A DNA stretch of 64,000 nt from a bacterium GBS-1 (GCA_001443005.1 LEKQ01000016.1:10788-74787); one strand, 5' to 3'. Numbered from the stretch's first letter, positions 43,914-64,000 are shown. Made by a program: numbers and translations. The notes: generated by a model not told the origin, from the sequence alone.

Positions 43914-43915
43914 GT

Positions 43916-44998: not shown

Positions 44999-45020
44999 GA
45001 AGGATTAAGAAAGATTAAAA

Positions 45021-45051: not shown

Positions 45052-45117
45052 ATTGGTTAAAATAGTGTATAATAACTAAAAGCCCGAAGATGCTTTCTGG
45101 CCTAAAGGTGGACGTGA

Positions 45118-45357
45118 ATGAGGGATGTAGTCTCTTTAGATAAACTTAAAGAGGGAGAGAGGGGCAAGGTTATAAATCTGATTGGAGGACGCGCTTTTAA
45201 GCTTAGGCTGATCCAGCTTGGAATAATGCCGGGCGTGGAGGTTAAGGTTTCAAAGAGTGCTCTCCTAAGTTGCCCCATGATGGTTGAGGTTAACAATGCT
45301 AGGGTCGCTCTTGGGAAAGGGGTTGCTTCAAGGATTTGGGTGGAAAGGATAGAGTGA
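45118..45357 (+). CDS. feoA: Ferrous iron transport protein FeoA
   Basis: 79 aa. L..L..GE.G.V..I.GG......L..LGI.PG..V.V SH3-like FeoA pattern. Confidence 0.85.
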   Translation: MRDVVSLDKLKEGERGKVINLIGGRAFKLRLIQLGIMPGVEVKVSKSALLSCPMMVEVNNARVALGKGVASRIWVERIE

Positions 45358-49238: not shown

Positions 49239-50363
49239 TTAACTCCCTCCGCGCAAAAGTATCCTTGAAAGCAGCCTCTCTTGAATCTTCACTGCTCCTA
49301 CAGGACATAGCTCATGACAGCAGAAACACATGATACACTTTCTCTCATCAACCCTTGGATAGGGATTAAGCTCTATAGCTTTCACCGGACAATTCTTCGC
49401 ACATATACCACATCTTACACACTTATTTTCATCCATCCTTACCCTCGATGTCAATCCCTTCCATAAAAAGGAGGGCAAAGCACGCGCAAGTATGCCGCTT
49501 TTAGGGGGCTCGAAGTTGAAGGAAACCTCTTTAAGCTCCTCCCCCAGGATTTCTATTCTATCTGGGTTGAGGTTTCTATCTTCAGCCACCTTTATCGTGG
49601 GTATGCGTCCAGGTTTAAACCCCATTATTTTAGATGCCACTATGTCTACTGCGAAGGAGTTTTCTCCGCCAAATATCAGCTTGGTTTCAATTGGTTTTCC
49701 CCAGGATGGTCCCTCCCCTTCCATGGAAAGGGTGGCATCGACTATAGATAGGGTGGGTTTAACGGCAAGATGAATGTTTATGAGAGCGTGGGAGAAGCTC
49801 TCAGGATCCCTAGCCTCTGCATGTACCCTTGCTTTCTGCCCCCCGGGAAGACAGCCGAAGGTGTTCTTCACGGCGCATGTCATTACGGTAAAGTTATGGG
49901 TTTTCAGCTTAGGCACGTTTATTACCTTATCGGCTTCAAAGACAGCCTGGGCCAGGGCAATGTGAATTTTCCCCCTCTTCCCTAAGCCTATTTCAATGAT
50001 CCTTTTGCCTTCCTCATCGAAGTTTCTCAACTTTAGCTTCGGGTATCTCTTAAGCAGATCTTTAAGATTTATGCTATCCATAGTCCTTTCTGTAGCGCTC
50101 TTTGTTGATACTCCGGAGCTGTCTCCTATCCATACCTCTGAAGCTAAGGGGTGGATAAGCTCGACTATCGCTTCTATTACCCTGGGATCCGTTATTCTCG
50201 CTTCCTCGATCCTCGATGGGGAAAGGAGATTGGGCTTTATGAGGACCTTATCTCCCAGGGAGACGAATCTCTCAACGCCACCTAAGAGATCAAATATTTC
50301 ATTGACTTTCGCCCTTATCTCTTGGTAGCTTATCTCCTTAAGCTTCCGAATAGCGACTTTCAT
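49239..50363 (-). CDS. DUF362-type protein with C-terminal 2x[4Fe-4S] ferredoxin domain
   Basis: Two CxxCxxCxxxCP motifs (CVRCGICAKNCP, CIMCFCCHELCP) at the C-terminus. The N-terminal region matches the DUF362 pattern from memory. The ATG at 50363 avoids overlap with the rpiR-like gene. Confidence 0.6.
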   Translation of the reverse strand: MKVAIRKLKEISYQEIRAKVNEIFDLLGGVERFVSLGDKVLIKPNLLSPSRIEEARITDPRVIEAIVELIHPLASEVWIGDSSGVSTKSATERTMDSINLKDLLKRYPKLKLRNFDEEGKRIIEIGLGKRGKIHIALAQAVFEADKVINVPKLKTHNFTVMTCAVKNTFGCLPGGQKARVHAEARDPESFSHALINIHLAVKPTLSIVDATLSMEGEGPSWGKPIETKLIFGGENSFAVDIVASKIMGFKPGRIPTIKVAEDRNLNPDRIEILGEELKEVSFNFEPPKSGILARALPSFLWKGLTSRVRMDENKCVRCGICAKNCPVKAIELNPYPRVDERKCIMCFCCHELCPVGAVKIQERLLSRILLRGGS

Positions 50364-50376
50364 AGAAAATATTATA

Positions 50377-51240
50377 TCATTCGGAGATACCATACTTAAC
50401 GAGAACTTCGCTTAACAAGTTTAGACGCTTTTGTGATTCGGCCTTTAATTTAGATCCTACAGCAGCTACGATAGCATCACATACTGCCACGAAGGTTATA
50501 GCGCTATAATGACTGGTGTTTTGCGGGGATAGAAGCGTTTCTGTAGCCAGTGGAATCATGGCATTAGATAAGCTATTAGTAATTAGAATTATAGGTACGC
50601 CATTTTTGTGAGCAAAATCTATGGCATATTTGGTTCTTTTAGTGTATCGAGGGACTCCTGCCATCAACGCTATCATAACATCTTGGGGTTTCATGTCTAT
50701 CAAAACTTCAAACATTTCATCTGTTCCATTTGCGTCTACGAGGAAGACATCCTCTCTATATTGAAGAAGTAATGCATGCAGATAGAGAGCTATTCCTCTT
50801 GTAGATCTTAAGCCTATTATGTATACTCTTCTTGCTTTTGCGATTATATCGACGCTTCTGGGGAAAGCTTTCAGAAGCTGTTCGTTGAGCAGGTCTTCTA
50901 AGGCTCTTACGCTCTCGCTTATTATTTTCTCTAGAAGCCCATTTTCATCCAAAGCCTTAAGTGCCTCCCGCATTTTATTTAGAGGCATGCCATGGGTCTC
51001 AGATATATACTCTTTAAGCTTTTCCTTAAGGTCCTTATAGTTTTTAAAACCGAGGTTTACGGACACCCTATGTATTGTAGCTAAACTTGTCTTCGTTTCC
51101 TCAGCAAGTTCTTGAGCGCTTGAAAAAGCAACCTTAATATAATTATTAATTATGTAGTCACAAAGTTTTTTTTGCTTTTTCGGCAAGATTTCCCTTTTTT
51201 GTCTAATTTGGCAAACAACATCTACTTTATCTTCCTTCAT
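50377..51240 (-). CDS. RpiR/MurR-family transcriptional regulator (HTH plus SIS domain)
   Basis: N-terminal HTH_6-like segment (L.KKQKKLCDYIINNY..VAFSSAQELAEETKTSLATIHR) and an SIS-like Rossmann segment (VYIIGLRSTRGIALYL). Confidence 0.75.
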   Translation of the reverse strand: MKEDKVDVVCQIRQKREILPKKQKKLCDYIINNYIKVAFSSAQELAEETKTSLATIHRVSVNLGFKNYKDLKEKLKEYISETHGMPLNKMREALKALDENGLLEKIISESVRALEDLLNEQLLKAFPRSVDIIAKARRVYIIGLRSTRGIALYLHALLLQYREDVFLVDANGTDEMFEVLIDMKPQDVMIALMAGVPRYTKRTKYAIDFAHKNGVPIILITNSLSNAMIPLATETLLSPQNTSHYSAITFVAVCDAIVAAVGSKLKAESQKRLNLLSEVLVKYGISE

Positions 51241-51305
51241 CTTCTTCGCCTCCGATTGTGAGCCTGTTTATGATCCTTTGTTTGTTTCGGAAATACCTTT
51301 CCATT

Positions 51306-52340
51306 TTAGCCACCGTTGATATTGGGAGCTTTGTCTTGCTCTAAGAGTTTAAGCAAGCTTTGGGGGTATCTCATAGATTCGATGGGATAGGAGATGTTCG
51401 CTATATGAATATTCTTCGTTAATCCCAGCTCAACTAAAGGAGCTAGGTAGTTAGCTCCTCCGAATACTACTATGAGCCCTCTGTTTTTTTCCCATATAGA
51501 GAAGCGGAATCTGTTAGGGATCGTGTAGCTGTGGTAAATCGGTTTTCTAAAAGGCGTGTTTTCTAGAAGATCTACTGTTTTTATAACCTTTTCGTATAGG
51601 ATTGACGGAAAGGTTTTGATGGCTGCGGTTACGTGTCCTATTCCTGTTGATATGTAAGAGCTGACAGATGTGTATCCTCCACGAATGAAGAGCTCTCCTG
51701 GGCTTATGGTGGTTCCGGTGTGTATCATGATCTCAGAGAAGCCTCGAACCTTTTCCTCTTCTATGAAAAGTATGCCTGTAGCTGTGCTTTCTATGGGTAT
51801 TCCTCTTTTTTGGAATATGAGGTCGTAATTTCTAGAACTTGGAACGATTAAGGCAACCTCATCCTCTTGAATGAAGATGGTCTTTAACTTTTTCGGTCCT
51901 GGTTCTATCGCTATAAGTGGAGAGAATATGATTTGCCTTTGGCTTAACTTAATCATTATCTCCAAGCTTTCCCTAAGCTGTTCTCTTTTTATGATTAAGG
52001 TGTTTGCGACTATAGAGCCAGTGTTTTTATCTATGTCATAGCTAGATTCCCAAAAAGCTTTTTCTCCTTCTATAGCCATTTCTCCAAGCCTTTCCGGAAG
52101 AAGCATTATTTTAGCTTCTTCAAGCCCTTTTTTCGTGAGCATAACTCCTCTTTTACCTAAGCGTTTTACTAATCCCTTCTTTTCCATATTTAACAGGTGA
52201 TACCTTATTGTGCGGGAATCTACATTAAGCCCCACTTTGCGAAGTCTCTCCTGCAGGTAGAGAGATGTTACAGGTGTCTCTTGGAAGTAGAGATTCTTAA
52301 CTATTTCTAAAAGGGTTGAGGGATGCTCCTCCAGCTCCAT
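51306..52340 (-). CDS. NrpR-like regulator (winged HTH plus one NrpR/DUF128 domain)
   Basis: wHTH LLEIVKN....PVTS..LQERL...GLNVDSRTIRYHLLNMEKKGLV.RLGKRGVMLTKKGLEE followed by a ~230-aa domain. The likely start is the ATG at 52340 after GGGGGTGA; the ORF track extends to 52454. A canonical NrpR operator lies in the adjacent divergent promoter. Confidence 0.6.
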   Translation of the reverse strand: MELEEHPSTLLEIVKNLYFQETPVTSLYLQERLRKVGLNVDSRTIRYHLLNMEKKGLVKRLGKRGVMLTKKGLEEAKIMLLPERLGEMAIEGEKAFWESSYDIDKNTGSIVANTLIIKREQLRESLEIMIKLSQRQIIFSPLIAIEPGPKKLKTIFIQEDEVALIVPSSRNYDLIFQKRGIPIESTATGILFIEEEKVRGFSEIMIHTGTTISPGELFIRGGYTSVSSYISTGIGHVTAAIKTFPSILYEKVIKTVDLLENTPFRKPIYHSYTIPNRFRFSIWEKNRGLIVVFGGANYLAPLVELGLTKNIHIANISYPIESMRYPQSLLKLLEQDKAPNINGG

Positions 52341-52464
52341 ATTTACTATCACCCCCATTAACTTTATAACCCCTAAAAAGATCATTTTAGGGAAGCGGCT
52401 ATCCAAGAGTTTTGGAAGAGTTCTCTTATCATAAATTTTATCATTGTTTTTCAAGTTACCATAC

Positions 52465-52493
52465 TTGCAAAAAGAGAATACTTATGCTATAGT
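52465..52493 (+). promoter_or_regulatory. Sigma-70-type promoter of the DUF1446/PrpD operon
   Basis: TTGCAA (52465-52470), 17-nt spacer, TGcTATAGT (TATAGT at 52488-52493). Confidence 0.6.
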
Positions 52494-52501
52494 GGAGTCA
52501 G

Positions 52502-52523
52502 TTGTGGAAGTGTATTTCCACAA
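52502..52523 (+). promoter_or_regulatory. Perfect palindromic operator TTGTGGAA-N6-TTCCACAA (contains GGAA-N6-TTCC)
   Basis: 8-bp perfect inverted repeat around a 6-nt spacer. It lies immediately downstream of the -10 and immediately upstream of the RBS AAGGAGGGG. Confidence 0.65.
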
Positions 52524-52536: not shown

Positions 52537-53922
52537 GTGAAGAGGGTGTCTATATTGGTTTCTACGGGAAACTTGGGTGACAACATAATAGAGAAGGGTA
52601 GTTTTTATGAGGGCGTTAAGAGGGATATAGATTGTTTTGCTAATGATGCTGGAACGGCGGATGCGGGACCAACGTTCTTAGGTGCTGATATGCCTCATAA
52701 TCCAATAGAGTGGGAACGACACGATCTTGAGCTGCTTTTGGTCGAAAGCAGAAAGAAAGGAGTTCCGATGATAGTAGGGTCCTGTAGCACCACTGGAACA
52801 GATAAAGCTGTAGATAGATACGCTCAAATCATAAGAGAGGTAGCTAAAGAGAGAAGGCTTGGTCCCTTTAAGATGGCTTTGATATATTCTCAAATAGATA
52901 AGGATGAATTGGCTAAAAGAGTTGAGCGTGGAGATACCGAGCCCTTAGGGGCGGATTATCCTATAACTGAGGAAGTATTGGCTCAGACCAATAACGTAGT
53001 TGCCATGATGGGGGTAGAGCAGATAATCCATGCCTTAAGTTTCGGAGCGGATGTGATTCTCGCTGGGAGGGCCTGTGATGATGCTGTTCTGGCTGCCTAT
53101 CCTATATATAAGGGCTTTCCTAAAGGTATAAGCTTGCACATGGGTAAGGCTTGTGAGTGCGCTTCTTTAGTGTGCTGGCCCCAAAAGGTTAAAGAGTCCA
53201 TAGTGGCTACGGTAACTCACGAGTATTTTTCTATAGAGCCTATGCATCCTGAACAGCGGGCTACTCCTCATAGTGTAGCTGCTCATTCTATGTATGAGAG
53301 GACAAATCCCTTCATACAAGCGGTTCCTGGAGGGGTACTTGATATGCATGAATGCATTTATGTAGCAGAGAACGAAAGAATAACTAGAGTGTATGGAAGT
53401 AAGTTCATACCATCACCTGACGGTTCTTACAAGGTAAAAATCGAGGGGGCAGGGGAAATAGGTTACAGAGTTTATCATATAGTTGGTGTTAGGGATCCGC
53501 GGGCTATTTTTTATATGGACATGATTCTGCAGGAGACTCGCAGGAAGGTTTCTGAGATAATAGGCCCCCATCGTGATAAAGATTACCAACTTTTCTTTCA
53601 CGTATATGGTAAAAACGCTATAATGAAAGATTTTGAACCGGTGAAGCAAACCAGCTCTCATGAGGTGGCGATAGTAATAGAATCGATTTCTAAGGATAAG
53701 GAGCTTGCTACTGCAGTGGCTAAATGTGCAAAGTTTAGACTCTTTTATATGAGCTATCCTGGACAGATGAATTCCTCGGGAGGTTCTGTGGCCTTGCTAA
53801 CCGATGAACCTCTGTATCCTCAGAACAAATGTTATAAGTGGACTATAGATCACCTTTTGAGACTTGATGATCCCTTGGATCCCAAAATATTTCGTTACAA
53901 GTTTGAGATAGTCAGGGGATAG
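52537..53922 (+). CDS. DUF1446 (AtuA N-terminal-like) protein
   Basis: About 460 aa. KRVSILVSTGNLG..., GTADAGP..LG, overall pattern recalled from acyclic-terpene-utilisation AtuA-family proteins. A separate DUF4387-like gene lies nearby. The GTG at 52537 follows GGAGG; the ORF-track start is 52444. Confidence 0.55.
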   Translation: MKRVSILVSTGNLGDNIIEKGSFYEGVKRDIDCFANDAGTADAGPTFLGADMPHNPIEWERHDLELLLVESRKKGVPMIVGSCSTTGTDKAVDRYAQIIREVAKERRLGPFKMALIYSQIDKDELAKRVERGDTEPLGADYPITEEVLAQTNNVVAMMGVEQIIHALSFGADVILAGRACDDAVLAAYPIYKGFPKGISLHMGKACECASLVCWPQKVKESIVATVTHEYFSIEPMHPEQRATPHSVAAHSMYERTNPFIQAVPGGVLDMHECIYVAENERITRVYGSKFIPSPDGSYKVKIEGAGEIGYRVYHIVGVRDPRAIFYMDMILQETRRKVSEIIGPHRDKDYQLFFHVYGKNAIMKDFEPVKQTSSHEVAIVIESISKDKELATAVAKCAKFRLFYMSYPGQMNSSGGSVALLTDEPLYPQNKCYKWTIDHLLRLDDPLDPKIFRYKFEIVRG

Positions 53923-53927
53923 GGGAG

Positions 53928-55343
53928 GTGATCTGGGAATTGGAAAGCGTAAAGGATACGCTTCTCCTTAGGCTTTCGGGGTTTTATTCCAGTTTGGACT
54001 TAGATAGCATTCCTCAAGAAGTGATAGAAAGGGCTAAGGAGCGTCTTATAGATTTTTTGGGTGTATTGGCTGTGGGGTTTAAGAGAGGAGAGGTTGCCTC
54101 CTATGTGAATAAATATGTGCTGAGTTTAGGGGGAAAAGAGGAATCTACCATTCTTTGCTTGAACAGGAAGGTCCCAGCTATTCATGCGGCTTTAGCTATG
54201 GGGGCTATGGCGCATTCAGTGGAGCTTGACGATGGGCATAGATGGGGCACATCGCACCCTGGGGTAGCGATAATACCATCTGTTTTAGCTTTCGGTGAGA
54301 GAGAAGGTAGTGATTTCAAGAGGATGCTTGGAGCCATAGTTGTGGGGTACGATCTCATGCTAAGGGTTGCAAGAGCCATAAACCCATCCCATTTAAGAAG
54401 GGGCTTTCATTCAACGGGTACCTGTGGAGCCTTGGGATCTGCAGCAGCATGCGCGTTCCTTAAGGGCTTCGATGCATTGAGAACCGCCTACTCTGTATCT
54501 ATAGGTGGCTTGCAGAGCGCAGGAATACAGGAGATGCTTCATGACAATCCGTCTATAAAGGTTCTCCAAGCTGGTCATGCTGCTATGGCTGGTGTTTTAG
54601 CAGCTGATCTCGTTGCTCTAGGAGCTAGAGGCCCTAGAACGCTCTTTGAAGGAAAGCATGGTTGGCTCAAGGCCATGTGTAATGGAGAGTATGACGAGAG
54701 AGCTTTAATAGGTGATCTGGGCAAGCGATGGGAGATAAACTTCGCTTATACAAAGCTGTATCCCACTTGTAGGCATTGTCATGCTTCTATAGATTTGGCG
54801 ATAGAAGCTAAGGATACCCTGGGAATACAAAGCCTTAAAGAGGTTAAGGAGGTCTTGATCCGAACATATTCTGTGGGCATAGCTGAGGTCGGCAATATAG
54901 CTTGTCCGAGCTCCTTTGAGGAAGCTCTTTTTAGCCTGCCCTTCTCCGTTTCCGTGGCTCTCATGAAGGGGAATGTAACCCTAGAGGATTACTCTGAGGA
55001 GTCGCTTAGAGATGAGGAACTTAAGGTTTTTGCTAGGGATAGGGTTAAGATTGAGTCTGATCCCGATATGGATAAGTTGTATCCGGAGGAGCGAGGTGCC
55101 TATATGAGAGTATTAACCAGTGATGGAAGGGTGTTTGAGAGAAAGGTTTCTATTCCTCTAGGAGAACCGGAAAGACCTGTGGATCGCGATCGGCTCTACA
55201 AGAAGCTTTCCTCCATACTTGAACCTTACTATCCTGAAAGCTTTCTGAAGGAATTATGGCGTGTGATCATGGAAAGGAGACCTGAGGAATCCTCTTTCGA
55301 GGATATAAAGGAGGTTTATAGGAGGTATTGTGAAAATGGTTAG
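53928..55343 (+). CDS. MmgE/PrpD-family protein, paralog 1
   Basis: N-terminus L..F...L.LDSIPQEVIERAKERLIDFLGV...G, H.VELDDGHRWGTSHPG, C-terminal alpha/beta domain, 471 aa. Confidence 0.8.
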   Translation: MIWELESVKDTLLLRLSGFYSSLDLDSIPQEVIERAKERLIDFLGVLAVGFKRGEVASYVNKYVLSLGGKEESTILCLNRKVPAIHAALAMGAMAHSVELDDGHRWGTSHPGVAIIPSVLAFGEREGSDFKRMLGAIVVGYDLMLRVARAINPSHLRRGFHSTGTCGALGSAAACAFLKGFDALRTAYSVSIGGLQSAGIQEMLHDNPSIKVLQAGHAAMAGVLAADLVALGARGPRTLFEGKHGWLKAMCNGEYDERALIGDLGKRWEINFAYTKLYPTCRHCHASIDLAIEAKDTLGIQSLKEVKEVLIRTYSVGIAEVGNIACPSSFEEALFSLPFSVSVALMKGNVTLEDYSEESLRDEELKVFARDRVKIESDPDMDKLYPEERGAYMRVLTSDGRVFERKVSIPLGEPERPVDRDRLYKKLSSILEPYYPESFLKELWRVIMERRPEESSFEDIKEVYRRYCENG

Positions 55344-55668
55344 AAAATATAAGAACATATGTGAGTTAGCTAGGACTATAAGAAGTAAAAACGCAGGTTC
55401 GTTTGTGATAACGCTGGAGATAATTTTCGATGACAGAGATATATACGAAAAGGTAAAGAAAAGCGGTGTGATAACCAGGGAGAAGATAGCGGAGCTTTAT
55501 GGCGTTGAGCCCGATAAGATTATAGACTTTATGTTTTTCGACCCTGGGATGGGGATAAAGGCGAACTTCAGAAGAGCGTCCCCGAGCGGAGGACCAGGCG
55601 AAACCGATGTGTATGGTTGCCAGCAATATGCGCCTCTTTTCAATATAGATATACCGTGGGATGAGTGA
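55330..55668 (+). CDS. DUF4387 (AtuA C-terminal-like) small protein
   Basis: 112 aa. ...IRSKNAGSFVITLEIIFDD...Y..V..SGVIT...IAELYGV....I....FFDP..GIK......SG..GE.D.YG.QQ..PL. Start at GTG 55330 or ATG 55336, overlapping the stop of PrpD paralog 1. Confidence 0.55.
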   Translation: MKMVRKYKNICELARTIRSKNAGSFVITLEIIFDDRDIYEKVKKSGVITREKIAELYGVEPDKIIDFMFFDPGMGIKANFRRASPSGGPGETDVYGCQQYAPLFNIDIPWDE

Positions 55669-55671
55669 GCC

Positions 55672-57033
55672 ATGTCTTACACTAGAAATTTTGCAACTTT
55701 CATTAGCTCTCTGAGTTTACAATCTGTGCCGCCTGAGGTTCAGCACCAAGCTAAAAGGTGCTTTTTCGATGCTGTTGGAGTTATGATCGCTGGAAGCTTC
55801 TATTCAGATACTGCAAGAGTAGTAAAGAGTTTAGCTCAAGAGCTTGAGGAGGTAGGGGAATCGACCATAGTGGGGACTAATCTTAGGAGGTCTTGCATGA
55901 CAGCAGCCTTTGCTAATGCTGCTATGGCTCATGCTCTTGAGCTAGATGATGGTTCAAAGTATGCCACTTATCATCCTGGTGCTTCTTTAATACCGACCTC
56001 TTTAGCTTTAGCCGAAAAGCTTGGCGCTAGCGGACGAGATCTTTTAGAAGCTATTATCTGCGGGTACGAGGTCTCTCTGAGAATAGGGACGGCGGTAAAT
56101 CCTCATCACTATCTCAGTGGTTTTCATCCGACGGGAACCGTTGCTGTGTTTGGTACTACGGCTGTTTCAGCTAAGCTATTGAAGCTTTCGGAAGAGGAGA
56201 TAGTAAGCGCCCTTGGGATCGCGGGTAGCATGGCTTGTGGAATAAATCAATACGAGATAGATGGCTCAAATGTTAAGCATCTTCATCCAGCAAACGCTGC
56301 CAGAAACGGTATCCTTGCAGCCCTTTTAGCTAAAAAGGGATTGAGCGGCCCTGAGCATATCTTGGAGGGAAGGTTGGGATTTTTCAAGTGCTATGCTCAG
56401 GGGAACTATGACAGAAAGGTTTTGGAAGAAGGTATAGGTAGCGATTTTGAGATCTTGAGGATATACTTTAAGCCCTATCCTTCCTGTCGATACGTTCATT
56501 ACGCTGTAGAGGCAGCGCTAGAGCTTAGGAAGAGATACGGGATAAAGGCGGAGGATGTTGAGAGCATAAATGTAAGGACACACCTAAATGCGAAACAGGG
56601 GTCAGATATTCCTGACTATAGAACCCCTCTACATGCTCGCTTGAGCATTCAGTATGGGATTGCCTCAGTGCTTGTAAGAGGCAAAGCCGGAATGAAAGAA
56701 TATACTGAGGATAGCATAAAAGATCAATGCATTAAGGAGTTAGTTAATAAAATAACAATAGAAGTGGATCCTGAGATTCAGAAGCTTTATCCTAATCCAC
56801 GTTCTTTGGTCCTTGAGATAAACACGAAGGATAATAGGGTATTTTCCCATAGGGTTGATTACCCTAAAGGGGATCCTGAAAATCCCATGAGTGATTCTGA
56901 ACTTGAGGAGAAGTTCTTAGATATCACAGAGGAAGCTTTAGGAAGGGACAAAGCCTGCCTATTAATGGAGAGGCTTTGGAGCATTGATGAGGTAAATAAC
57001 ATAAGATCAATAAGTGAACTTTTAATGCTTTAA
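55672..57033 (+). CDS. MmgE/PrpD-family protein, paralog 2
   Basis: FATFISSLSLQSVPPEVQHQAKRCFFDAVGVMIAGS, HALELDDGSKYATYHPG, 453 aa. Confidence 0.8.
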   Translation: MSYTRNFATFISSLSLQSVPPEVQHQAKRCFFDAVGVMIAGSFYSDTARVVKSLAQELEEVGESTIVGTNLRRSCMTAAFANAAMAHALELDDGSKYATYHPGASLIPTSLALAEKLGASGRDLLEAIICGYEVSLRIGTAVNPHHYLSGFHPTGTVAVFGTTAVSAKLLKLSEEEIVSALGIAGSMACGINQYEIDGSNVKHLHPANAARNGILAALLAKKGLSGPEHILEGRLGFFKCYAQGNYDRKVLEEGIGSDFEILRIYFKPYPSCRYVHYAVEAALELRKRYGIKAEDVESINVRTHLNAKQGSDIPDYRTPLHARLSIQYGIASVLVRGKAGMKEYTEDSIKDQCIKELVNKITIEVDPEIQKLYPNPRSLVLEINTKDNRVFSHRVDYPKGDPENPMSDSELEEKFLDITEEALGRDKACLLMERLWSIDEVNNIRSISELLML

Positions 57034-57038
57034 GGGGG

Positions 57039-58448
57039 GTGTCTGTTTTGGGGGAATTCGTGAATCCCGCAAAGGGAACAATAGGAGAGGCTCTCGCTAA
57101 GTTTGCGGTTGAGCTTAAGTATGAGGATATACCGAAGGAGGTTTTAAGCCATCTTAAGGATGTTATGCTGGATGGCTATGGTTGTGGCTTATTTGGTACT
57201 ACAACACCGTGGTGGAGCATATATAAGAAGGTGTTAACCTCCCTGTTTAAGGAGAAGGAGGTTTCAATCTGGGGCGACAGCGATAAGACATCGGTGGTAG
57301 CTGCTACAATGCTCAACGGAGCTGCTATTAACTCCTTTGAGCTCGATGATACTCACACTGAGGGGATAATTCACGTTTCGACTGGGGTTTTAGGATGTGT
57401 ATCTTCATTTGCGGAGTATTTAGGAAATGTCTCGGGAAAAGATTTTCTTGTGGCGACAACTCTTGCTTATGAGGTATCCTGTAGAATAGCAGCTCCTGTT
57501 GGAAGGATTTTAGCAGATCAGGGGTTTAACAATACTGGAGTTTGTTGTCCTATAGGGTCAACAGCGGCCTGCGGAAAACTATTGAATCTCAATGTAGATC
57601 AAATGATAGATGCCTTTGGTATTGCTGCTAATTGGTCCTCAGGGCTTCAAGCGATTCAGTTTGAGTCTATGGCCAAGAGAATAGTTCCCTCTAAGTCGTC
57701 AGAGGGTGCCATAATAGGAAGTCTTTTAGCTAAAGAGGGATTTACCGGTATAAAGGATGTTTTCGAGAACAAGTTTGGAGGATTTTATAACTGCTTTACC
57801 GATGATGTATACGATAGGGAAAGGATAGTGGGAGACCTAGGCGTTAGGTACGAGCTTATGGGGATAGGTCTCAAGTTTTACTCGACTTGTAGAAGTAAGC
57901 ATACAACCATAGATGCCCTTAAGAGGTTTAGAAGCGAGCATCCAGAGGTTAAGCCTGAGGATATAGAGAAAATAGTTGTTCACACTACTTCTATAACTAA
58001 AAAGTACTCAGTTGATGTAGATAGGATTATCAGCGTAGTCTCAGCTCAGCTCAGTCATCCTTATGTATGTGCTGTGGTTATGCTGGAGGGAGATGCTTTC
58101 ATAGACCAATTTAATGAGGAGAAGATAAGGGACCCCAAAATCCTTGAGCTTGCCAGGAAGGTCGAAGTAGTGGTGGATCCAGAGATAGACAAATTGCCTA
58201 ACTCCTTAAGATATACAGTGCATGTAGATATATACCTCAAGGATGGCAGGAGTTACAGGGTAACCCAGGTTTTTCCTAAGGGACATCCTAAGAATCCCTA
58301 TACGAGGGAGGAGCTTGAGAGGAAGTTCAAAATACTAGCGGGCAAGGTTTTCCAAGATGAGGAGCGCTTAAATAGAATAATCGAGACGGTTATGAACCTG
58401 GAGGATCTACCCAATGTTAATGAGTTGTTTAAGCTTTTGAGCAAATGA
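57039..58448 (+). CDS. MmgE/PrpD-family protein, paralog 3
   Basis: LAKFAVELKYEDIPKEVLSHLKDVMLDGYGCGLFG, NSFELDDTHTEGIIHVS, 469 aa. Confidence 0.8.
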   Translation: MSVLGEFVNPAKGTIGEALAKFAVELKYEDIPKEVLSHLKDVMLDGYGCGLFGTTTPWWSIYKKVLTSLFKEKEVSIWGDSDKTSVVAATMLNGAAINSFELDDTHTEGIIHVSTGVLGCVSSFAEYLGNVSGKDFLVATTLAYEVSCRIAAPVGRILADQGFNNTGVCCPIGSTAACGKLLNLNVDQMIDAFGIAANWSSGLQAIQFESMAKRIVPSKSSEGAIIGSLLAKEGFTGIKDVFENKFGGFYNCFTDDVYDRERIVGDLGVRYELMGIGLKFYSTCRSKHTTIDALKRFRSEHPEVKPEDIEKIVVHTTSITKKYSVDVDRIISVVSAQLSHPYVCAVVMLEGDAFIDQFNEEKIRDPKILELARKVEVVVDPEIDKLPNSLRYTVHVDIYLKDGRSYRVTQVFPKGHPKNPYTREELERKFKILAGKVFQDEERLNRIIETVMNLEDLPNVNELFKLLSK

Positions 58449-59707
58449 AGATGAGAGGGAAAACCATAGTAGAGAAGATCATATCTTCTCATTGTAGGGA
58501 AGGCGTTAAGGCTGGAGATTTCACCGTTGTCTCTGTGGATCTGGCCGTAACTCACGATGCCACAGGTCCTGGAGTGATCAAGGCTTTTGAGGAGTTTGGT
58601 AAGAAGAGCGTGTGGAATAGGGAGAAGATAATTTTCGTTTTCGATCATGCGGCGCCTTCACCAAACGAAAAGGTGAGCAACTTGCACGTTATGATGAGGA
58701 AGTTTACGAAGGAGCACGGAATAAAGCTTTTTGACGTAGGATGTGGGGTATGTCATCAGGTCGTGATTGAGAAGGGACTTGTTTTACCGGGAGATATAGC
58801 TGTGGGTACGGATTCGCATACTTGTACTTATGGCGCGTTAAATGCCTTTGCCTTTGGTATAGGGTCAACCGAGATGGCTGGCGTTTTCTTAACGGGGAAG
58901 CTGTGGTTAAAAGTGCCGGAAACACTAAAAGTAATCTTGAACGGAGGCCTTCCAAAGGGGGTCTATGCGAAGGATGTAGCGCTTAAGATGATAGGTGAGC
59001 TGGGTTCAGAAGGAGCTGACTACTTGGCAATAGAGTTCATCGGAGAGGCTTTAAGTCAGATGCCGATGTCCGACAGATTCGTTTTGTCCAATATGGTTAT
59101 AGAATGCGGAGCTAAAGCTGGTCTAATGGAGGCTGATTCGGAGACACTGTGTTGGCTTAAGGGTAGGGCTCGTAGAGAATTTAGCCCCGTTAGAAGCGAT
59201 GATAACGCAAGCTTTGTAGATGAGCTTTCTATAGACTGCTCTACCCTTCAACCTCAGGTTGCTGTGTATCACTCTGTAGATAACGTTTACCCGATATCTG
59301 AGGTTGAAGGGGAGAGCATCGACCAGGTATTCATAGGAACTTGTACTAATGGAAGGGCTGAGGATTTAAGGGTAGCTGCTTCTATACTCGCTGGAAGGAA
59401 AATCTCTGATGGGGTTAGGCTGATCGTATGCCCAGCTTCACACGATGAGCTTCTTAAGGCTATGAAAAGCGGTGCGATTGAGGTTCTTATAGAAGCTGGG
59501 GCAGTTTTAATACCACCTGGTTGTGGACCCTGTCCTGGTACGCATTTGGGAGTTCCTGGGGATGGAGAGAAGGTGTTATCGACCGCTAATAGAAACTTCA
59601 AAGGGAGGATGGGAAATAACAAGGCTTTCATCTTTTTAGCGTCTCCAGCTACCTGCGCAGCTTCAGCTATAACGGGTAAGATTACAGACCCAAGACGCTT
59701 TCTGTGA
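58445..59707 (+). CDS. Aconitase-superfamily hydro-lyase large subunit (LeuC/HacA-type, 420 aa)
   Basis: VDLAVTHDATGP, GTDSHT, Fe-S ligands GTCTNGR and PGCGPCPG, NRNFKGRMG. Confidence 0.85.
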   Translation: MKMRGKTIVEKIISSHCREGVKAGDFTVVSVDLAVTHDATGPGVIKAFEEFGKKSVWNREKIIFVFDHAAPSPNEKVSNLHVMMRKFTKEHGIKLFDVGCGVCHQVVIEKGLVLPGDIAVGTDSHTCTYGALNAFAFGIGSTEMAGVFLTGKLWLKVPETLKVILNGGLPKGVYAKDVALKMIGELGSEGADYLAIEFIGEALSQMPMSDRFVLSNMVIECGAKAGLMEADSETLCWLKGRARREFSPVRSDDNASFVDELSIDCSTLQPQVAVYHSVDNVYPISEVEGESIDQVFIGTCTNGRAEDLRVAASILAGRKISDGVRLIVCPASHDELLKAMKSGAIEVLIEAGAVLIPPGCGPCPGTHLGVPGDGEKVLSTANRNFKGRMGNNKAFIFLASPATCAASAITGKITDPRRFL

Positions 59708-59723
59708 GACAGGGGGTGTAAAA

Positions 59724-60224
59724 GTGGGGGAGATCCTAAGAGGTAGGGCTTTCAAGCTGGGAGATAACATAAATACAGATTATATAATAGCCGGGAAGTA
59801 TACGAAGACCCTGGATTACGCATTTTTAGCGGAGCACCTGCTTGAGGATGTGGACCCTACGATAGCAAAAAGGATTAAAAGAGGAGATTTCCTCGTGGCT
59901 GGGAAGAACTTTGGCTGCGGGTCATCAAGGGAGCAAGCGGCTATAGCTATAAAGTATGCCGGTATAAGCGCTGTTTTGGCTAAGTCCTTTGCAAGGATCT
60001 TTTTCAGAAACGCTATCAACCTAGGGCTTCCAGCCTTAGTTTGCGATACTGATCTTGTAGATGAGGGGGATGAGCTTGAGCTTGATATCGAAACCCTCTC
60101 TCTGAAAAACCTCTCTAAGAGCATACCAATTCCCGTTGTTCCCCTAAATAAGATTATGGTGAACATACTTAGGGAGGGAGGACTAGTCCCCTATCTAAAA
60201 AAGCATGGGGATTATGTCTTTTGA
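59724..60224 (+). CDS. Aconitase-superfamily hydro-lyase small subunit (LeuD/HacB-type)
   Basis: GDNINTDYIIAGKY, GKNFGCGSSREQAA.A.K..GI.AV.A.SFARIFFRNAINLGLP. Confidence 0.85.
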   Translation: MGEILRGRAFKLGDNINTDYIIAGKYTKTLDYAFLAEHLLEDVDPTIAKRIKRGDFLVAGKNFGCGSSREQAAIAIKYAGISAVLAKSFARIFFRNAINLGLPALVCDTDLVDEGDELELDIETLSLKNLSKSIPIPVVPLNKIMVNILREGGLVPYLKKHGDYVF

Positions 60225-60254
60225 TCTCTTTAAAACTAAAGGAGGTGAGTTTAA

Positions 60255-61268
60255 ATGTCTAAGGGGAAAACGGTGAAAGTAGCTCTTTTTACCTTGATGC
60301 TTCTTTGCATTACGGTAGTAGCTTTCGCTAAGGTTTACTATCTTAATATGGGGAGCACTTCTTCGGCTTCTCCAATTTACGCTTGGTGCGTTGCTACCGC
60401 TAACGCTATAAATAAAGAATATGATGATATAAGGGTTACCGTCGTGGAAAGCGGTGCTGCCTTAGATAACTTGAGGAGACTTAGGGATGGAGAGTTTGAT
60501 TTTGCTTTAGCGGTGGACTTACCATCTGCGATGCAAATGTATAAGGGAATAGACGCTTTTAAGGGAACCCCGTGGAAAGAGGTTAGATGGTTGCTTGTCA
60601 GAAACGTGATTGCAGACAGGGTTTACGTTCTTAAGGAACTTAACATTAAGAACTTTGCTGAGCTCGAAGGTAAGCCCTTCTGCCCCGGGCTTCCTGGCTC
60701 TTCGAGTGCTAACTACATGATGAGAATGGCTGAAGCTTTGGGTCTCAAGATGAACTTTCGCCCTGCTAGCTTAGCTGATGCGATTGAGTTGCTTAAGCAG
60801 AAGAAAATAGTCGCTTTACAGCAGTCCAGTCCCATTGATTCTATGTCTGCTGCGTTGCTTGAGGTGCATATTCACACTCCGTTAACGGTTGTAGGGTTTA
60901 CCAAAGAGCAAGTTGAGAGAATCAGGCAAGTTTATCCCTACCTCAGCTTCATTGAGACTCCTAAAGGAGGTATAAAGCAGCTGCCTGATGCAGGGCCTTT
61001 CTATGAAGAAGCTCCTATAGTTGGTGCGGTGGCTTCAAGCAAGCTCCCTCAAGAGGTAGGATACAAGATAATCAAAGCTTATGTCAAGCGCTTTAACGAG
61101 ATTGCTGAAGCTTGGCCAGCAATTAAGGGTTGGGATCCTGTCAGAGACTTCTTTAAGTACGCTCAACCTGGTGGAGATATCCCCGCTCACGCGGGCTTAG
61201 TACAGTATGCTAAGGAGATAGGCATAGAGGTTCCCGAAAGGTTAATACCTCCTGAGTATAAGCCGTAG
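60255..61268 (+). CDS. TAXI-family TRAP transporter solute receptor (divergent), secreted
   Basis: Signal peptide. ...V.ESGAALDNLRRLRDGEFDFALA pattern and ~330 aa size typical of TAXI binders. It is adjacent to a fused TAXI-type permease gene. Confidence 0.65.
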   Translation: MSKGKTVKVALFTLMLLCITVVAFAKVYYLNMGSTSSASPIYAWCVATANAINKEYDDIRVTVVESGAALDNLRRLRDGEFDFALAVDLPSAMQMYKGIDAFKGTPWKEVRWLLVRNVIADRVYVLKELNIKNFAELEGKPFCPGLPGSSSANYMMRMAEALGLKMNFRPASLADAIELLKQKKIVALQQSSPIDSMSAALLEVHIHTPLTVVGFTKEQVERIRQVYPYLSFIETPKGGIKQLPDAGPFYEEAPIVGAVASSKLPQEVGYKIIKAYVKRFNEIAEAWPAIKGWDPVRDFFKYAQPGGDIPAHAGLVQYAKEIGIEVPERLIPPEYKP

Positions 61269-61293
61269 ATGGCAAAATTTGGTCTCTAACCAT

Positions 61294-61332
61294 GGTGCCC
61301 TCTTAACTTGCGGTTCAGGTTAAGAGGGCACC
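61294..61332 (+). other. Intercistronic stem-loop between the binding-protein and permease genes
   Basis: Perfect 14-bp stem GGTGCCCTCTTAAC / GTTAAGAGGGCACC with an 11-nt loop. No T-run follows. Confidence 0.6.
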
Positions 61333-61355
61333 CGAATCTGGGAGGGTGAGGATTT

Positions 61356-63218
61356 TTGGATAGAGAGAGGGTTATCAGATATTGGTCTATGTCGTTTGCG
61401 TTAGTTCAGCTTTTGGTTCCCCTGTTTTTAACAGACCTTATAGATATCCAGTTGAGGGCTGTTCATGTGGCTTTGGGATTAAGCCTCGCTATACTTGTAT
61501 TTTCTAAACGAGTGGGGAAAATAACTCCCTTTGAGATGTTGATGATAATTATAGTTTTATTAGCTAACATCAATATCTTAGGTGATGCCTATGATATATA
61601 TATCACGCCTGGCGCTTCTGACTCATGGGATATAGCCCTTGGCATCGCTATTTTTATGATCATCTTAATTGTTGCGAGGAATTCAATGGGGTGGCCAATT
61701 CCAACGATGGTTCTGCTTTTTCTTGCATATATATTTTTGGGTAGATATATGCCAGGGATATGGAAGCTTAGAGGTTTATCCCTTCGCTATGTAATAAACT
61801 CTATCTACTGGTCTCCCTTGGGGGTGTACGGCTCCATTACCGGCATGTCTGCCACTTTTATTTCTACTTTTATAATCTTCGGCTCGCTTATAGCTAGTGT
61901 TGGAGCTGGAAAGACCTTTATAGATTTGGCTTTGGCTTTAACGGGAAGGTATCGTGGTGGCCCGGCTAAAACCGCTGTAATATCGAGCGCCCTTTTTGGG
62001 AGCATTTCTGGGAGTGGCGTGGCTAATGTGTGTGTTACTGGGAACTATACAATCCCCTTGATGAAACGTTTAGGCTATGACAAGGATTTTGCCGCGGCGG
62101 TAGAAGCGATAGCTTCTACAGGAGGCATCATAACTCCTCCACTTATGGGAGTAGCTGCCTTTATGATGGCCGAGTTTCTGAAGATATCTTATTTTAACGT
62201 AATGGGCTATGCTTTAATACCTTGTATATTGTTTTACACGGGAGTTTATGGTGGGGTTCATTTCTATACTTTGAAACATAATCTAGCTGCGGTTCCTGAT
62301 GAAGAGATACCCTCATTTAAAGAGGTTTTAAGGCCTGAGAGGATACTACCCCTGCTTTTACCCACGGTTGTTCTAATTTACCTGATAGCCATAGGAAGGC
62401 CGTTAATGTATGCCGGTTTCTATGGAAGCTCAACGTGTATACTTTTGCACCTGTTTCTCTCCCTTCTAAGGGGGAGATTAAAGAAGGGGGTAAAGGATAT
62501 CCTTGCAGGATTGGAAGATGGTGGAAAGGGTTTAGCAAGGTTGCTTCCGGTTTTAGTTTCGGTAAACGTCTTGGTTAATATGATAGGTATGACCGGCATT
62601 GCGCCGAAGCTAAGCGGTATAATAACCTCTTTAGGCGAAAATAATATGATACTCTCTCTTATCATAGCTACTATAATACCATTCATTCTAGGTACCTCTC
62701 TTCCAGTGGTTCCTACATATATGCTTTGCATATCCATTCTTTCATCTCCTCTTATGAAGATTGGTGTAAGGCCAGAGGCGATTCATCTCTTTTTCATATA
62801 TTGGTCTATGTTGGGAGGGGTAACTCCACCAACCTGTACCCAAGCGATGGTAGCTGCGGGTATAGCTGGAGGAAATTGGGTAAGAACGGGTTTCCTATCG
62901 GTAAAGCTCGGTATAGTGGCTTTTATAATCCCATTCTTCTTCGTCATTAACCCGGCGCTGTTAGGTTTGTCAACATGGGGTGAAGTGATCTCTTCAGCCA
63001 TAACCGGTTTTGCGGGAGCATTGCTTTTGTCCTTTAGCTTGTTCTGGACCTTTAAGGGGATCCCAGGTATTCTCTTAAAGGCAGTGTTTTTTATTAGCGG
63101 GCTTCTAGCTCTATACCCCAATTTATGGATTTCCTCAGCCTCGTTGGCTATAGTTGCTCCTATTCTGTTTCTTGGTAAGAAAAAGGGATACATAGCTGCT
63201 AGGGAAAGCTCTCCTTAA
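61356..63218 (+). CDS. TAXI-type TRAP transporter fused permease (DctQ-DctM fusion)
   Basis: 620-aa polytopic protein. The segments FGSISGSGVANV..TG..TIP.MKR.GY and GGIITPP.MG.AAF are typical of the fused 4TM/12TM TRAP permease. Confidence 0.8.
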   Translation: MDRERVIRYWSMSFALVQLLVPLFLTDLIDIQLRAVHVALGLSLAILVFSKRVGKITPFEMLMIIIVLLANINILGDAYDIYITPGASDSWDIALGIAIFMIILIVARNSMGWPIPTMVLLFLAYIFLGRYMPGIWKLRGLSLRYVINSIYWSPLGVYGSITGMSATFISTFIIFGSLIASVGAGKTFIDLALALTGRYRGGPAKTAVISSALFGSISGSGVANVCVTGNYTIPLMKRLGYDKDFAAAVEAIASTGGIITPPLMGVAAFMMAEFLKISYFNVMGYALIPCILFYTGVYGGVHFYTLKHNLAAVPDEEIPSFKEVLRPERILPLLLPTVVLIYLIAIGRPLMYAGFYGSSTCILLHLFLSLLRGRLKKGVKDILAGLEDGGKGLARLLPVLVSVNVLVNMIGMTGIAPKLSGIITSLGENNMILSLIIATIIPFILGTSLPVVPTYMLCISILSSPLMKIGVRPEAIHLFFIYWSMLGGVTPPTCTQAMVAAGIAGGNWVRTGFLSVKLGIVAFIIPFFFVINPALLGLSTWGEVISSAITGFAGALLLSFSLFWTFKGIPGILLKAVFFISGLLALYPNLWISSASLAIVAPILFLGKKKGYIAARESSP

Positions 63219-63396
63219 TGGGAAAATCTTAAGCTGGGTTACGGGTAAGAATACCGTATCTTTTCCCTTTAGAAAGGGAATTTATCGATTTCCTCAGCTA
63301 TCCCCCTCGCATATTTTAGCATTTAAACTTGGGAGGTCAGGGATATGGTATGGCTTTCCTCATTTTATAAAGATCGCTGATTTTTTGTCATGCGTA

Positions 63397-63425
63397 TTGT
63401 CAGAGTTCAGAGCATGTGGTAAACT
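63397..63425 (+). promoter_or_regulatory. Candidate promoter for the second TAXI binding-protein gene
   Basis: TTGTCA (63397-63402), 17-nt spacer, TGgTAAACT (TAAACT at 63420-63425). A second TTGTCA lies 12 bp upstream at 63385. Confidence 0.4.
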
Positions 63426-63439
63426 TATCAATGAAATAA

Positions 63440-63471
63440 TTTCTTCCTAAATTGTCATTTTTAGGAAGAAA
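63440..63471 (+). promoter_or_regulatory. Perfect 12-bp inverted repeat (operator or 5'-UTR hairpin)
   Basis: TTTCTTCCTAAA-ttgtcatt-TTTAGGAAGAAA, between the candidate -10 and the RBS of the downstream gene. Confidence 0.5.
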
Positions 63472-63497
63472 ACCTTTCATTAAAGGGGGTGCTATGG

Positions 63498-64000
63498 ATG
63501 AGGAGGGGTATGGTATATTTGGCGATTCTGGTAGCGATTTCTTTAGCTTTTGGAGTTAGGGTTCTTGCAGCTGAACAGTTTTCTATCGCTACTGGTGGAA
63601 CAGCTGGAACTTACTATCCTATAGGGTCGGCCATAGCTTCTGTTGTTAGTAAGTATGTTCCTGGAGTTAAGATGAACGCTGAGGCAACGGGAGCCTCTGT
63701 AGCTAACCTTAGAATGCTGAAGGCTAAAAAGGTAGATTTCATAATGGCTGCATCCAATACTGCCTACGGAGCATATAGTGGAGAACCACCCTTTGATAAG
63801 GATCCTGTGAAGAATCTGCGTGGAATTGCCGCTCTTTATCCTGAGGTCTTCCAGTTTGTGGTGAGGAAAGACTCTGGTATTAAAAGCTTTTATGATCTGA
63901 GGGGGAAGAAGGTAGCTGTAGGAGCTCCGGGAAGTGGGACAGAAAGAACAGCCAAGCTTGTTTTAGCTGCGCATGGTTTGACCTATGGCGATATAAAGCC
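63498..64000 (+). CDS. TAXI-family TRAP transporter solute receptor, second copy (3' end outside window)
   Basis: ATG at 63498 after AAAGGGGGTG. Signal peptide MRRGMVYLAILVAISLAFGVRVLAA. Canonical TAXI N-terminus FSIATGGTAGTYYPIGSAIA...GASVANLRML..KKVDF. Confidence 0.8.
   Translation, partial: MRRGMVYLAILVAISLAFGVRVLAAEQFSIATGGTAGTYYPIGSAIASVVSKYVPGVKMNAEATGASVANLRMLKAKKVDFIMAASNTAYGAYSGEPPFDKDPVKNLRGIAALYPEVFQFVVRKDSGIKSFYDLRGKKVAVGAPGSGTERTAKLVLAAHGLTYGDIK

Follow-up and report, generated by a model that had tools for sequence, protein, structure and literature searches.

The stretch of DNA analysed here (hereafter the window) comprises 64,000 nucleotides from the bacterium GBS-1 (GCA_001443005.1, LEKQ01000016.1:10788-74787). 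From position 52537 to its end, ten genes follow one another on the + strand, according to an open reading frame (ORF) listing and to Pfam and NCBIfam scans, on which the gene calls are based. The series opens with a cmlA-like gene (52537-53922) for the large subunit of a lyase, a protein of 461 residues belonging to the AtuA/DUF1446 family (Pfam PF07287; PDB 9erq_A). The gene for the small subunit, a cmlB-like DUF4387 protein of 112 residues (55330-55668; Pfam PF14330; PDB 9erq_B), lies behind the first of three MmgE/PrpD genes, prpD1 (53928-55343; Pfam N and C domains). The other two follow, prpD2 (55672-57033; Pfam, PDB 2hp0) and prpD3 (57039-58448; Pfam), the product of the latter having Asn at two conserved His positions. 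Next come the large subunit of an Fe-S hydro-lyase of the aconitase family, of the archaeal HacA/LeuC type (58445-59707; NCBIfam PRK00402), and its small subunit with the specificity loop AGKYTKTL (59724-60224; NCBIfam LEUD_arch). They are followed by TAXI1, a TAXI-family TRAP solute-binding protein (60255-61268; TIGR02122), and a fused DctQ-DctM TRAP permease (61356 or 61389 to 63218; TIGR02123), and the last gene, TAXI2 (63498-64000), is cut by the window end. On the - strand, a gene for an NrpR-type repressor of 359 residues (51306-52385; Pfam HTH_12 and NRD1_2) diverges from the series. The cluster brings known enzyme families together in a combination that has not been described, and places them under a regulator of archaeal type, which was unexpected. 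We favour, with moderate confidence, its interpretation as an NrpR-controlled catabolic operon that would convert an aconitate-, itaconate- or citramalate-type acid to acetate and a 2-oxo acid without recourse to coenzyme A (CoA).

The junctions between the genes range from -14 to +30 nucleotides, with two exceptions, between TAXI1 and the permease (87-120 nucleotides) and between the permease and TAXI2 (279 nucleotides). This order and spacing, including the two wider junctions, had been described in an earlier analysis of the same DNA made without database searches (the sequence-only reading), and our data bear it out. The mechanical ORF of the cmlA-like gene opens at 52444. We place its start at the GTG at 52537, behind AAAGGAGG, because a promoter-like site (52465-52493, + strand) and the AAAGGAGG box precede that codon.

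We mapped the conservation of the cluster by tblastn of the window proteins against 16 genome loci and about 20 metagenome loci; L-numbers below denote the related genome or metagenome loci that were compared with the window. Some 45 independent loci from genomes and metagenomes repeat this gene order. In the mapped loci, the core cmlA-prpD1-cmlB-prpD2-prpD3 never varies in its order, and the hydro-lyase pair and the TAXI-TRAP genes are located either after this core or, in Acetomicrobium, on a divergent arm. Complete sets are present in the type strains of A. colombiense (CP001997) and A. mobile (CP003198). The closest named relatives belong to Acetomicrobium (81% identity for the first gene), followed by Aminobacterium, Aminivibrio, Thermovirga and unclassified Synergistaceae, and proteins identical to those of the window occur on contigs from 77 °C sediment of Great Boiling Spring. 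Judging from these loci, the cluster is confined almost entirely to Synergistota, where heat-loving fermenters of amino acids carry it. The lack of such a conserved neighbourhood had been set beforehand as the outcome that would speak against a dedicated gene set, and the neighbourhood is in fact conserved in about 45 loci across genera. Literature searches yielded no paper on this gene cluster in Synergistota.

Several loci depart from the common pattern. Two of them, L008 and L021, are labelled as Armatimonadia metagenome-assembled genomes despite 74-77% identity to Synergistota genes, which could reflect mis-binning or gene transfer. The PrpD-1 paralog is duplicated in L021 (3345-6693), and the hydro-lyase pair is absent between prpD3 and TAXI in L012 and L034.

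The divergently transcribed regulator, which the sequence-only reading had left out, is a homologue of NrpR accompanied by a canonical operator beside the operon. It combines a winged helix with one NRD domain (Pfam E 1e-46), and homologues with 39-44% identity adjoin the cluster in nearly all Synergistota loci. NrpR is known from methanogenic archaea, with the operator consensus GGAAN6TTCC (PMC2723118). In the 64-kb window this motif has just three matches, two of which flank nrpR. One of the two, GGAAGTGTATTTCC (52506-52519), lies downstream of the -10 box of the promoter-like site, a TG-extended TTGCAA-17-TATAGT, and upstream of the ribosome-binding site of cmlA. The operator is perfect at the equivalent position in L001, L009-L012, L018, L023 and L113, and other loci have variants with one or two changed half-site positions. 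In orthologous loci, TTGACA-17-TATxAT is found in the equivalent place upstream, and A. mobile has an NrpR operator on each of its divergent arms. The genes thus present what defines an NrpR regulon, namely an NrpR homologue and a GGAA-N6-TTCC site at the promoter, in a position conserved across genera. NrpR homologues also adjoin plain cmlAB pairs in L056 and L058. As in the nitrogen regulon of methanogens, the repressor unites a helix-turn-helix and NRD, and the operator consensus is identical and overlaps the promoter. However, the host is a bacterium, the repressor has a single NRD domain, and the targets are organic-acid enzymes and a transporter rather than nif, glnA or amtB.

The second perfect operator, GGAAATACCTTTCC (51289-51302), is located upstream of a unit on the - strand (49239-51240) composed of an rpiR-family gene and a gene for a DUF362/4Fe-4S ferredoxin-domain protein. 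By virtue of this site, the two genes may belong to the same NrpR regulon in the window organism. They are not conserved beside the cluster in other genera.

The DUF1446 and DUF4387 proteins, described by the sequence-only reading as two domains of unknown function, correspond to the subunits of CmlAB, whose structures have been solved (PDB 9erq/9evf). The first matches Pfam PF07287 (E 1.4e-18) and, over residues 6-447 of 461, chain A of 9erq, 'Citramalate lyase, subunit A (cmlA)' (E 5e-75). The second matches PF14330 (E 6.9e-37) and, over residues 8-108 of 112, chain B, 'subunit B, cmlB' (E 5e-24). Both chains therefore resemble solved CmlAB over their full length, and we regard their membership of the CmlAB lyase family as secure on the strength of these matches. 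According to a preprint, the CmlAB of Raoultella planticola converts citramalate directly to pyruvate and acetate (bioRxiv 10.64898/2026.01.16.699985). The window pair shares with it the two-subunit make-up, AtuA/DUF1446 plus DUF4387, and presumably the chemistry, a retro-aldol cleavage independent of CoA and acyl carrier protein (ACP) that releases acetate. Unlike the Raoultella genes, those of the window are split by a prpD gene. A 2015 paper reported a DUF1446 gene downstream of mal, which codes for methylaspartate ammonia-lyase, in glutamate-fermentation clusters of Enterobacteriaceae and Dictyoglomus. Beyond that note, our literature searches on DUF1446 and DUF4387 returned nothing.

The substrate of the window lyase cannot be read from homology, since CmlA is only 33% identical to the Raoultella enzyme, the latter is an outgroup, and the family is large and diverse, with 1525 clusters at 50% identity (E <= 0.001). 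For the first two of these reasons we rejected a direct 'citramalate lyase' label. Nor did the gene context indicate orthology with citramalate lyase: in contrast to the enterobacterial setting, no genes for methylaspartate ammonia-lyase (mal), glutamate mutase or mesaconase were found in the window or in the 45 related loci.

More distant relatives show how the cluster may have been assembled. Those with 40-52% identity come from Chloroflexota, Armatimonadota and numerous metagenomes and consist of cmlA and cmlB side by side, without genes for PrpD or aconitase in the vicinity. The commonest among 94 immediate neighbours of such plain pairs are GntR/UTRA regulators (11), Peptidase_C26 (7) and DctM (6), and amidohydrolases, racemase-like proteins and hydantoinases also occur. 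The simplest nested form has only a regulator, a TAXI1-like binder (57-64% identity), a permease and cmlAB (L073, L093). In L044 and L045, prpD1 alone is added, sited between cmlA and cmlB, and the Synergistota further add prpD2-prpD3, the hydro-lyase and usually a second lyase. This modular nesting fits a pathway that ends at CmlAB and has been extended upstream.

Some of these relatives have other features. In other phyla (L007:9270-12063, L056:3892-6354 and more), a Peptidase_C26/GATase gene is often in translational coupling with cmlAB-like pairs, which also adjoin GntR-UTRA regulators, Opp- or DcuC-type transporters, amidohydrolases and alanine-racemase-fold proteins. These neighbours suggest that much of the family acts on unrelated substrates, perhaps ones with nitrogen. 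The reduced clusters (L045:503-12101, L044:15-7568) consist of permease, TAXI, a small ORF, cmlA, prpD1 and cmlB. The one in L045 is preceded by an Octopine_DH protein and by a protein of 1218 residues with a weak N-terminal B12-binding match and a C-terminal domain like GlmL, a glutamate-mutase accessory protein; its middle part of about 590 residues has no match in Pfam or PDB. This large protein could link prpD1-cmlAB to a mutase pathway.

The three PrpD proteins each contain the N- and C-terminal MmgE/PrpD domains (Pfam, E 1e-35 to 1e-72). As proposed before from three motif strings, all of which are present verbatim, they are mutually divergent, with pairwise identities of 26-33%. None of them scores as PrpD proper: they reach 24-70 bits against equivalog cut-offs of 458-950 (NCBIfam), and in the PDB search true PrpD structures either match them no better than 1e-7 to 1e-11 or give no match. 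Their best PDB matches are B. subtilis 'IRG1' (7bra, 6e-42) for PrpD-1, iminodisuccinate epimerase (2hp0, 9e-52) for PrpD-2 and cis-aconitate decarboxylase (1e-32) for PrpD-3. Known activities of the family comprise dehydratases, decarboxylases and epimerases or isomerases, to which a 2025 study added an (S)-(R)-methylsuccinate isomerase. Their substrates all contain a succinate unit, held by six conserved residues, His88, Glu91, His102, His152, Lys202 and Lys266 in P. aeruginosa numbering (PMC12290011). PrpD-1 and PrpD-2 retain all six. PrpD-3 is the paralog nearest to cis-aconitate decarboxylase (CAD/IRG1), but at only 116 bits and without two of the His residues, which does not support assignment to that enzyme. 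It is nonetheless the best conserved of the three (65-72% identity, versus 51-63% for PrpD-1 and PrpD-2), and its strings 'INSFELDD' and 'GFNNTG' are common to the window and Aminobacterium.

The prpD1 gene is always inserted between cmlA and cmlB and is the sole prpD gene of the reduced clusters L044 and L045. In Aminobacterium, the junctions cmlA/prpD1, prpD1/cmlB and cmlB/prpD2 overlap by 4-11 nucleotides, indicating translational coupling. Outside Synergistota, PrpD-3-like proteins are found as tandem pairs of divergent PrpD paralogs (L024:9377-12358, L026:437-4847). The recurrence of such pairs hints at hetero-oligomers, which may be common in the PrpD family. In L024 one partner of the pair has Arg in place of a conserved His, and the pair of L026 adjoins an HMGL-like gene of the citramalate/homocitrate-synthase type.

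The hydro-lyase passes subfamily models only and fails the equivalog cut-offs of both LeuC/LeuD and HacA/HacB. Its large subunit scores 568 bits with PRK00402 (cut-off 385), but 483 with HacA_Meth (cut-off 550) and 459 with LEU2 (cut-off 611). The small subunit has 199 bits with LEUD_arch and misses the equivalog models leud (167 for a cut-off of 246) and HacB2 (189 for 230); the NCBIfam model that it matches carries the name 'LeuD/DmdB family'. The loop AGKYTKTL is the same in all of 32 orthologues, which otherwise share 57-69% identity. The corresponding loop is YLRT in HacB/homoaconitase, YLVY in isopropylmalate/citramalate isomerase and YNLT in Pyrococcus LeuD. YTKT keeps the HacB-like (R/K)-T pattern yet differs from YLRT, and together with the scores below cut-off, a loop other than the YLVY type sets the pair apart from LeuCD. 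No leuA, leuB or prpC gene was found in the window.

The closest relatives of the hydro-lyase outside Synergistota, with about 60% identity for the small subunit and the loop YKFKT, come from Desulfofundulus and Dictyoglomus. In the loci concerned (L110:5546-9530 and L111:5582-8501), an operon of Desulfofundulus kuznetsovii encodes a NifV-like synthase, a two-subunit HacAB-type hydro-lyase and an NAD-isocitrate dehydrogenase. Synthase and hydro-lyase are shared by Dictyoglomus, where the place of isocitrate dehydrogenase is taken by an Fe-ADH gene. These operons probably represent a Re-citrate-synthase-type route to 2-oxoglutarate, and judged from gene content, the setting of the nearest outside relatives is aconitase-type. 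Although they contain the closest homologues, they differ from the Synergistota cluster in their biosynthetic context, with a synthase and a dehydrogenase, and in lacking a lyase, PrpD and a transporter; their loop is YKFKT and not YTKT.

Behind the cluster, most genera have a gene for a PEP-mutase/ICL-family lyase of 296-303 residues, as do the type strains of A. colombiense and A. mobile. Its best PDB match is petal death protein (2e-63), followed by methylisocitrate lyases, and 2,3-dimethylmalate lyase is also among its PDB matches. It does not reach the equivalog cut-off for methylisocitrate lyase PrpB (257 bits for 354). Neither the window nor the 10 kb after its end contains a gene for this PrpB-like lyase. 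Of the partners said earlier to be missing (leuA, leuB, prpC and prpB), the absence of prpB is a feature of the window organism only, as A. colombiense, A. mobile and most other carriers have a lyase resembling PrpB and petal death protein in the cluster. The cluster of A. mobile (L112:16303-19821) continues with an amidohydrolase, a second PEP-mutase/ICL-family gene (308 residues) and an IclR regulator.

Both components of the importer pass the models for TAXI-TRAP systems, with 96 bits for TAXI1 (TIGR02122, cut-off 84) and 488 bits for the permease (TIGR02123, cut-off 321). The exact permease protein is present on 15 contigs, and homologues of TAXI1 with 57-64% identity adjoin plain cmlAB pairs in other lineages. 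The best PDB match of TAXI1 is 1us4, a glutamate-binding Thermus protein deposited as 'putative GluR0 ligand binding core'. At 71 bits it is too distant, and we rejected a ligand assignment on that ground. The spacer between TAXI1 and the permease contains a strong hairpin (61294-61332, + strand) with a dG of -31 kcal/mol and a z score of -6.3, and none of 200 shuffled sequences was as stable. As it has no T-run, its role is more likely in mRNA stability than in termination, and it probably serves to differentiate the stability of the mRNA on its two sides. No clear intrinsic terminator was detected after the permease (z -1.5), where a palindrome is the sole terminator-like site of the spacer. 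A scan for riboswitches or other RNA elements with Rfam gave no matches at E <= 0.1.

TAXI2, which the sequence-only reading had included in the operon, does not belong to it but heads a separate downstream unit. A promoter-like site (63397-63425) and a perfect palindrome with 12-base-pair arms (63440-63471, TTTCTTCCTAAA-N8-TTTAGGAAGAAA) precede it on the + strand, so that the segment 63397-63471 marks the operon boundary. TAXI2 is only 25% identical to TAXI1 and is absent from the corresponding position of orthologous clusters in other genera. It has its own partners downstream (L027:12122-18006), a fused TRAP permease of 636 residues, an Octopine_DH protein, an SbnB-like protein of the ornithine-cyclodeaminase family (277 bits for a cut-off of 327) and an SDR. 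The palindrome is probably an operator for another regulator. From its gene content, the TAXI2 unit looks like a system for uptake and oxidation of an opine-like N-(carboxyalkyl) amino acid.

On the other side of the locus, the genes at 41266-48688 are unrelated to the cluster. They encode a pfkB kinase, a mannitol-dehydrogenase-family protein and UxuA (hexuronate catabolism), as well as FeoB, a radical-SAM protein, PlsY and a CDP-alcohol phosphatidyltransferase.

How might these components work together? The sequence evidence covers family membership, gene order, conservation and the operator, and the regulatory step is based on it, while uptake, isomer conversion and cleavage are deduced from family membership and context. 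The NrpR-type protein would repress transcription by binding GGAA-N6-TTCC, which overlaps the transcript start, and 2-oxoglutarate or another C5/C6 oxo- or hydroxy-dicarboxylate related to it would trigger its release. A hydroxy- or alkenyl-polycarboxylate would be taken up by TAXI1 and the fused DctQM permease. The aconitase-like hydro-lyase and the three PrpD proteins, whose family acts without a cofactor and via an enolate, would then interconvert its isomers: a 3-hydroxy form (isocitrate or beta-alkylmalate), an ene form (aconitate, citraconate, mesaconate or itaconate) and a 2-hydroxy-2-substituted succinate (citrate or citramalate). PrpD-1, translationally coupled between cmlA and cmlB, probably feeds the lyase its substrate directly and would catalyse the step before cleavage. 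The CmlAB-type enzyme would finally split the tertiary alcohol by a retro-aldol reaction to acetate and a 2-oxo acid, most likely pyruvate, which could yield ATP via acetyl-CoA. In most other genera, the lyase resembling PrpB and petal death protein would open another way of cleavage, taking the other hydroxy isomer or stereoisomer. This agrees with the sequence-only reading in its most general claim, a self-contained, uncharacterised system for uptake and catabolism of a polycarboxylic acid, which holds up as the likely interpretation.

The two ends of such a pathway point in different directions, as the hydro-lyase suggests tricarboxylates and the lyase C5 acids. The two could be reconciled by a decarboxylation between them, a reaction known from the PrpD family, and all three PrpD proteins would then be used. 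It is tempting to speculate about a CoA-independent 'itaconate shunt' that turns a C6 tricarboxylate into pyruvate, acetate and CO2, although we consider this specific scheme doubtful. The hydro-lyase would form cis-aconitate, either out of isocitrate or aconitate that has been taken up or out of 2-oxoglutarate after its reductive carboxylation; one PrpD would decarboxylate cis-aconitate to itaconate, and a second would move the double bond to give citraconate or mesaconate. PrpD-1 would then hydrate this product to citramalate, to be cleaved by CmlAB. If true, this would account for three divergent PrpDs, one per reaction type known in the family, for a tricarboxylate-type hydro-lyase beside a C5-type lyase, and for reduced clusters that keep just prpD1 and cmlAB.

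Several observations weigh against the catabolic reading that we favour. The sole characterised CmlA, that of Raoultella, is an outgroup to the window clade and all its sampled relatives, and the genes around the pairs with 40-52% identity suggest nitrogen-containing substrates and a wide functional divergence. PrpD-3 has Asn at the positions of His88 and His152, in the window as in Aminobacterium, and may be a non-canonical enzyme or a non-catalytic partner. NrpR signals nitrogen status in archaea, and by that analogy carbon catabolism fits only if the effector or the logic is different. Finally, for A. colombiense and A. mobile, which carry the cluster, growth is reported to fail on citrate and on succinate, and for A. 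mobile also on 2-oxoglutarate and on glutamate. Citrate had been an attractive substrate because the genus Anaerobaculum was described as citrate-fermenting, but we down-weighted it because the two species without growth on it have the full cluster.

A related possibility, which we regard as rather unlikely, is that a C6 or C7 acid of the aconitate, isocitrate, homocitrate or methylcitrate type is kept throughout, the CmlAB-like enzyme acting as a citrate-type lyase independent of CoA and ACP. The hydro-lyase and a PrpD would lead from the iso-form over the ene-form to a citrate-type tertiary alcohol, cleaved to acetate and oxaloacetate or 2-oxoglutarate, and the PrpB-like enzyme would cleave the iso-form. 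The aconitase/isocitrate dehydrogenase-type operons of the nearest hydro-lyase relatives and the resemblance of Y-T-K-T to the Y-L-R-T of HacB argue for it. So does the combination of PrpD, aconitase and PrpB, which makes up the lower methylcitrate cycle, and 2-oxoglutarate as product or effector would suit an NrpR-type regulator. Nevertheless, citrate does not sustain the growth of two cultured carriers, the substrate of the one CmlAB characterised is a C5 dicarboxylate, and three distinct PrpDs would be left without a role. Alternatively, the cluster might be a nitrogen-scavenging regulon under NrpR as in methanogens, for an opine- or iminodisuccinate-like N-(carboxyalkyl) amino acid or a gamma-glutamyl compound, with the PrpDs as epimerases of N-substituted aspartate-like units. 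The canonical operator would be in keeping with this, as would the proximity of PrpD-2 to iminodisuccinate epimerase, the match of TAXI1 to 1us4, the Octopine_DH genes adjoining the cluster in the window organism and L045, and the Peptidase_C26, amidohydrolase and racemase genes next to CmlAB-like pairs elsewhere. We find it improbable, considering that C-N lyases, deaminases and dehydrogenases are missing from the conserved core, that the Octopine_DH association is not kept across genera, and that aconitase-type hydro-lyases and PrpB-like lyases have no known amino substrates.

NrpR control would also suit a biosynthetic or anaplerotic role under nitrogen control, for instance in the supply or balance of 2-oxoglutarate and glutamate, or a methylcitrate-type route run in reverse, from succinate and pyruvate to propionate and oxaloacetate, in place of the catabolism of an imported acid. 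The kinship of the hydro-lyase with aconitases of 2-oxoglutarate-forming operons would fit, as would the production of propionate from 2-oxoglutarate by A. colombiense known from the literature. Yet an importer is always linked to the cluster, which has neither synthase nor dehydrogenase, and the PrpB-like enzyme required for the reversed route is absent from the window organism. Moreover, in the absence of a thioester, a lyase-catalysed condensation is thermodynamically unfavourable, and we hold such a role to be very improbable. That these are housekeeping LeuCD and PrpD genes that became neighbours by chance is refuted as far as sequence analysis allows, even though the source annotations read 3-isopropylmalate dehydratase and 2-methylcitrate dehydratase. 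The equivalog cut-offs are missed widely for PrpD and missed also for LeuC/LeuD and HacA/HacB, the specificity loop is unlike that of isopropylmalate isomerase, leuA, leuB and prpC are lacking in the window, and the genes are strictly linked to a lyase and a transporter across genera. The sequence-only reading was right to set the genes apart from leucine and methylcitrate housekeeping functions.

The CoA-independent catabolic operon that we favour can be set beside several known pathways. With the lower methylcitrate cycle it shares three families in the same logical order, a cofactor-free dehydratase, an Fe-S hydro-lyase and an ICL-family lyase. It differs in the absence of PrpC, in having all members below equivalog cut-offs and three PrpD paralogs, in an archaeal-type two-subunit hydro-lyase rather than AcnB or AcnD, and in the addition of CmlAB and an importer. 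The lower part of nicotinate fermentation in Eubacterium barkeri involves methylitaconate isomerase, the dimethylmaleate hydratase DmdAB and dimethylmalate lyase, and there, too, alkyl-substituted maleate and malate are handled by a LeuCD/DmdAB-family hydratase and then an ICL-family lyase. The isomerase of that pathway, however, is of the PrpF family and not a PrpD, there is no CmlAB, and the upstream nicotinate enzymes are not present in the cluster. The pseudomonad cluster for itaconate and methylsuccinate (Ict, Ich, Ccl and the MmgE/PrpD methylsuccinate isomerase; PMC12290011) also has a PrpD-family isomerase for C5 branched dicarboxylates and ends in a C-C cleavage at the level of citramalate to pyruvate and a C2 unit. 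It uses CoA thioesters throughout, whereas the cluster described here has no CoA transferase, hydratase or citramalyl-CoA lyase, and cleavage of the free acid is proposed.

The only functional information that we found for the AtuA/DUF4387 family is one solved citramalate lyase, and the window clade would provide a second functional context and probably a second substrate. To the four known activities of the PrpD family, the operon adds three further clades in one context, one of them with an altered catalytic set. The operator makes a bacterial NrpR regulon directly testable; if confirmed, it would be the first of its kind and would tie an archaeal-type sensor of 2-oxoglutarate to the fermentation of organic acids. 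If true, a free-acid, CoA-independent route leading from unsaturated or hydroxy polycarboxylates to pyruvate and acetate would be a new fermentation pathway of Synergistota, which abound in anaerobic digesters and hot springs, and its enzymes would be of use in the biotechnology of itaconate and citramalate.

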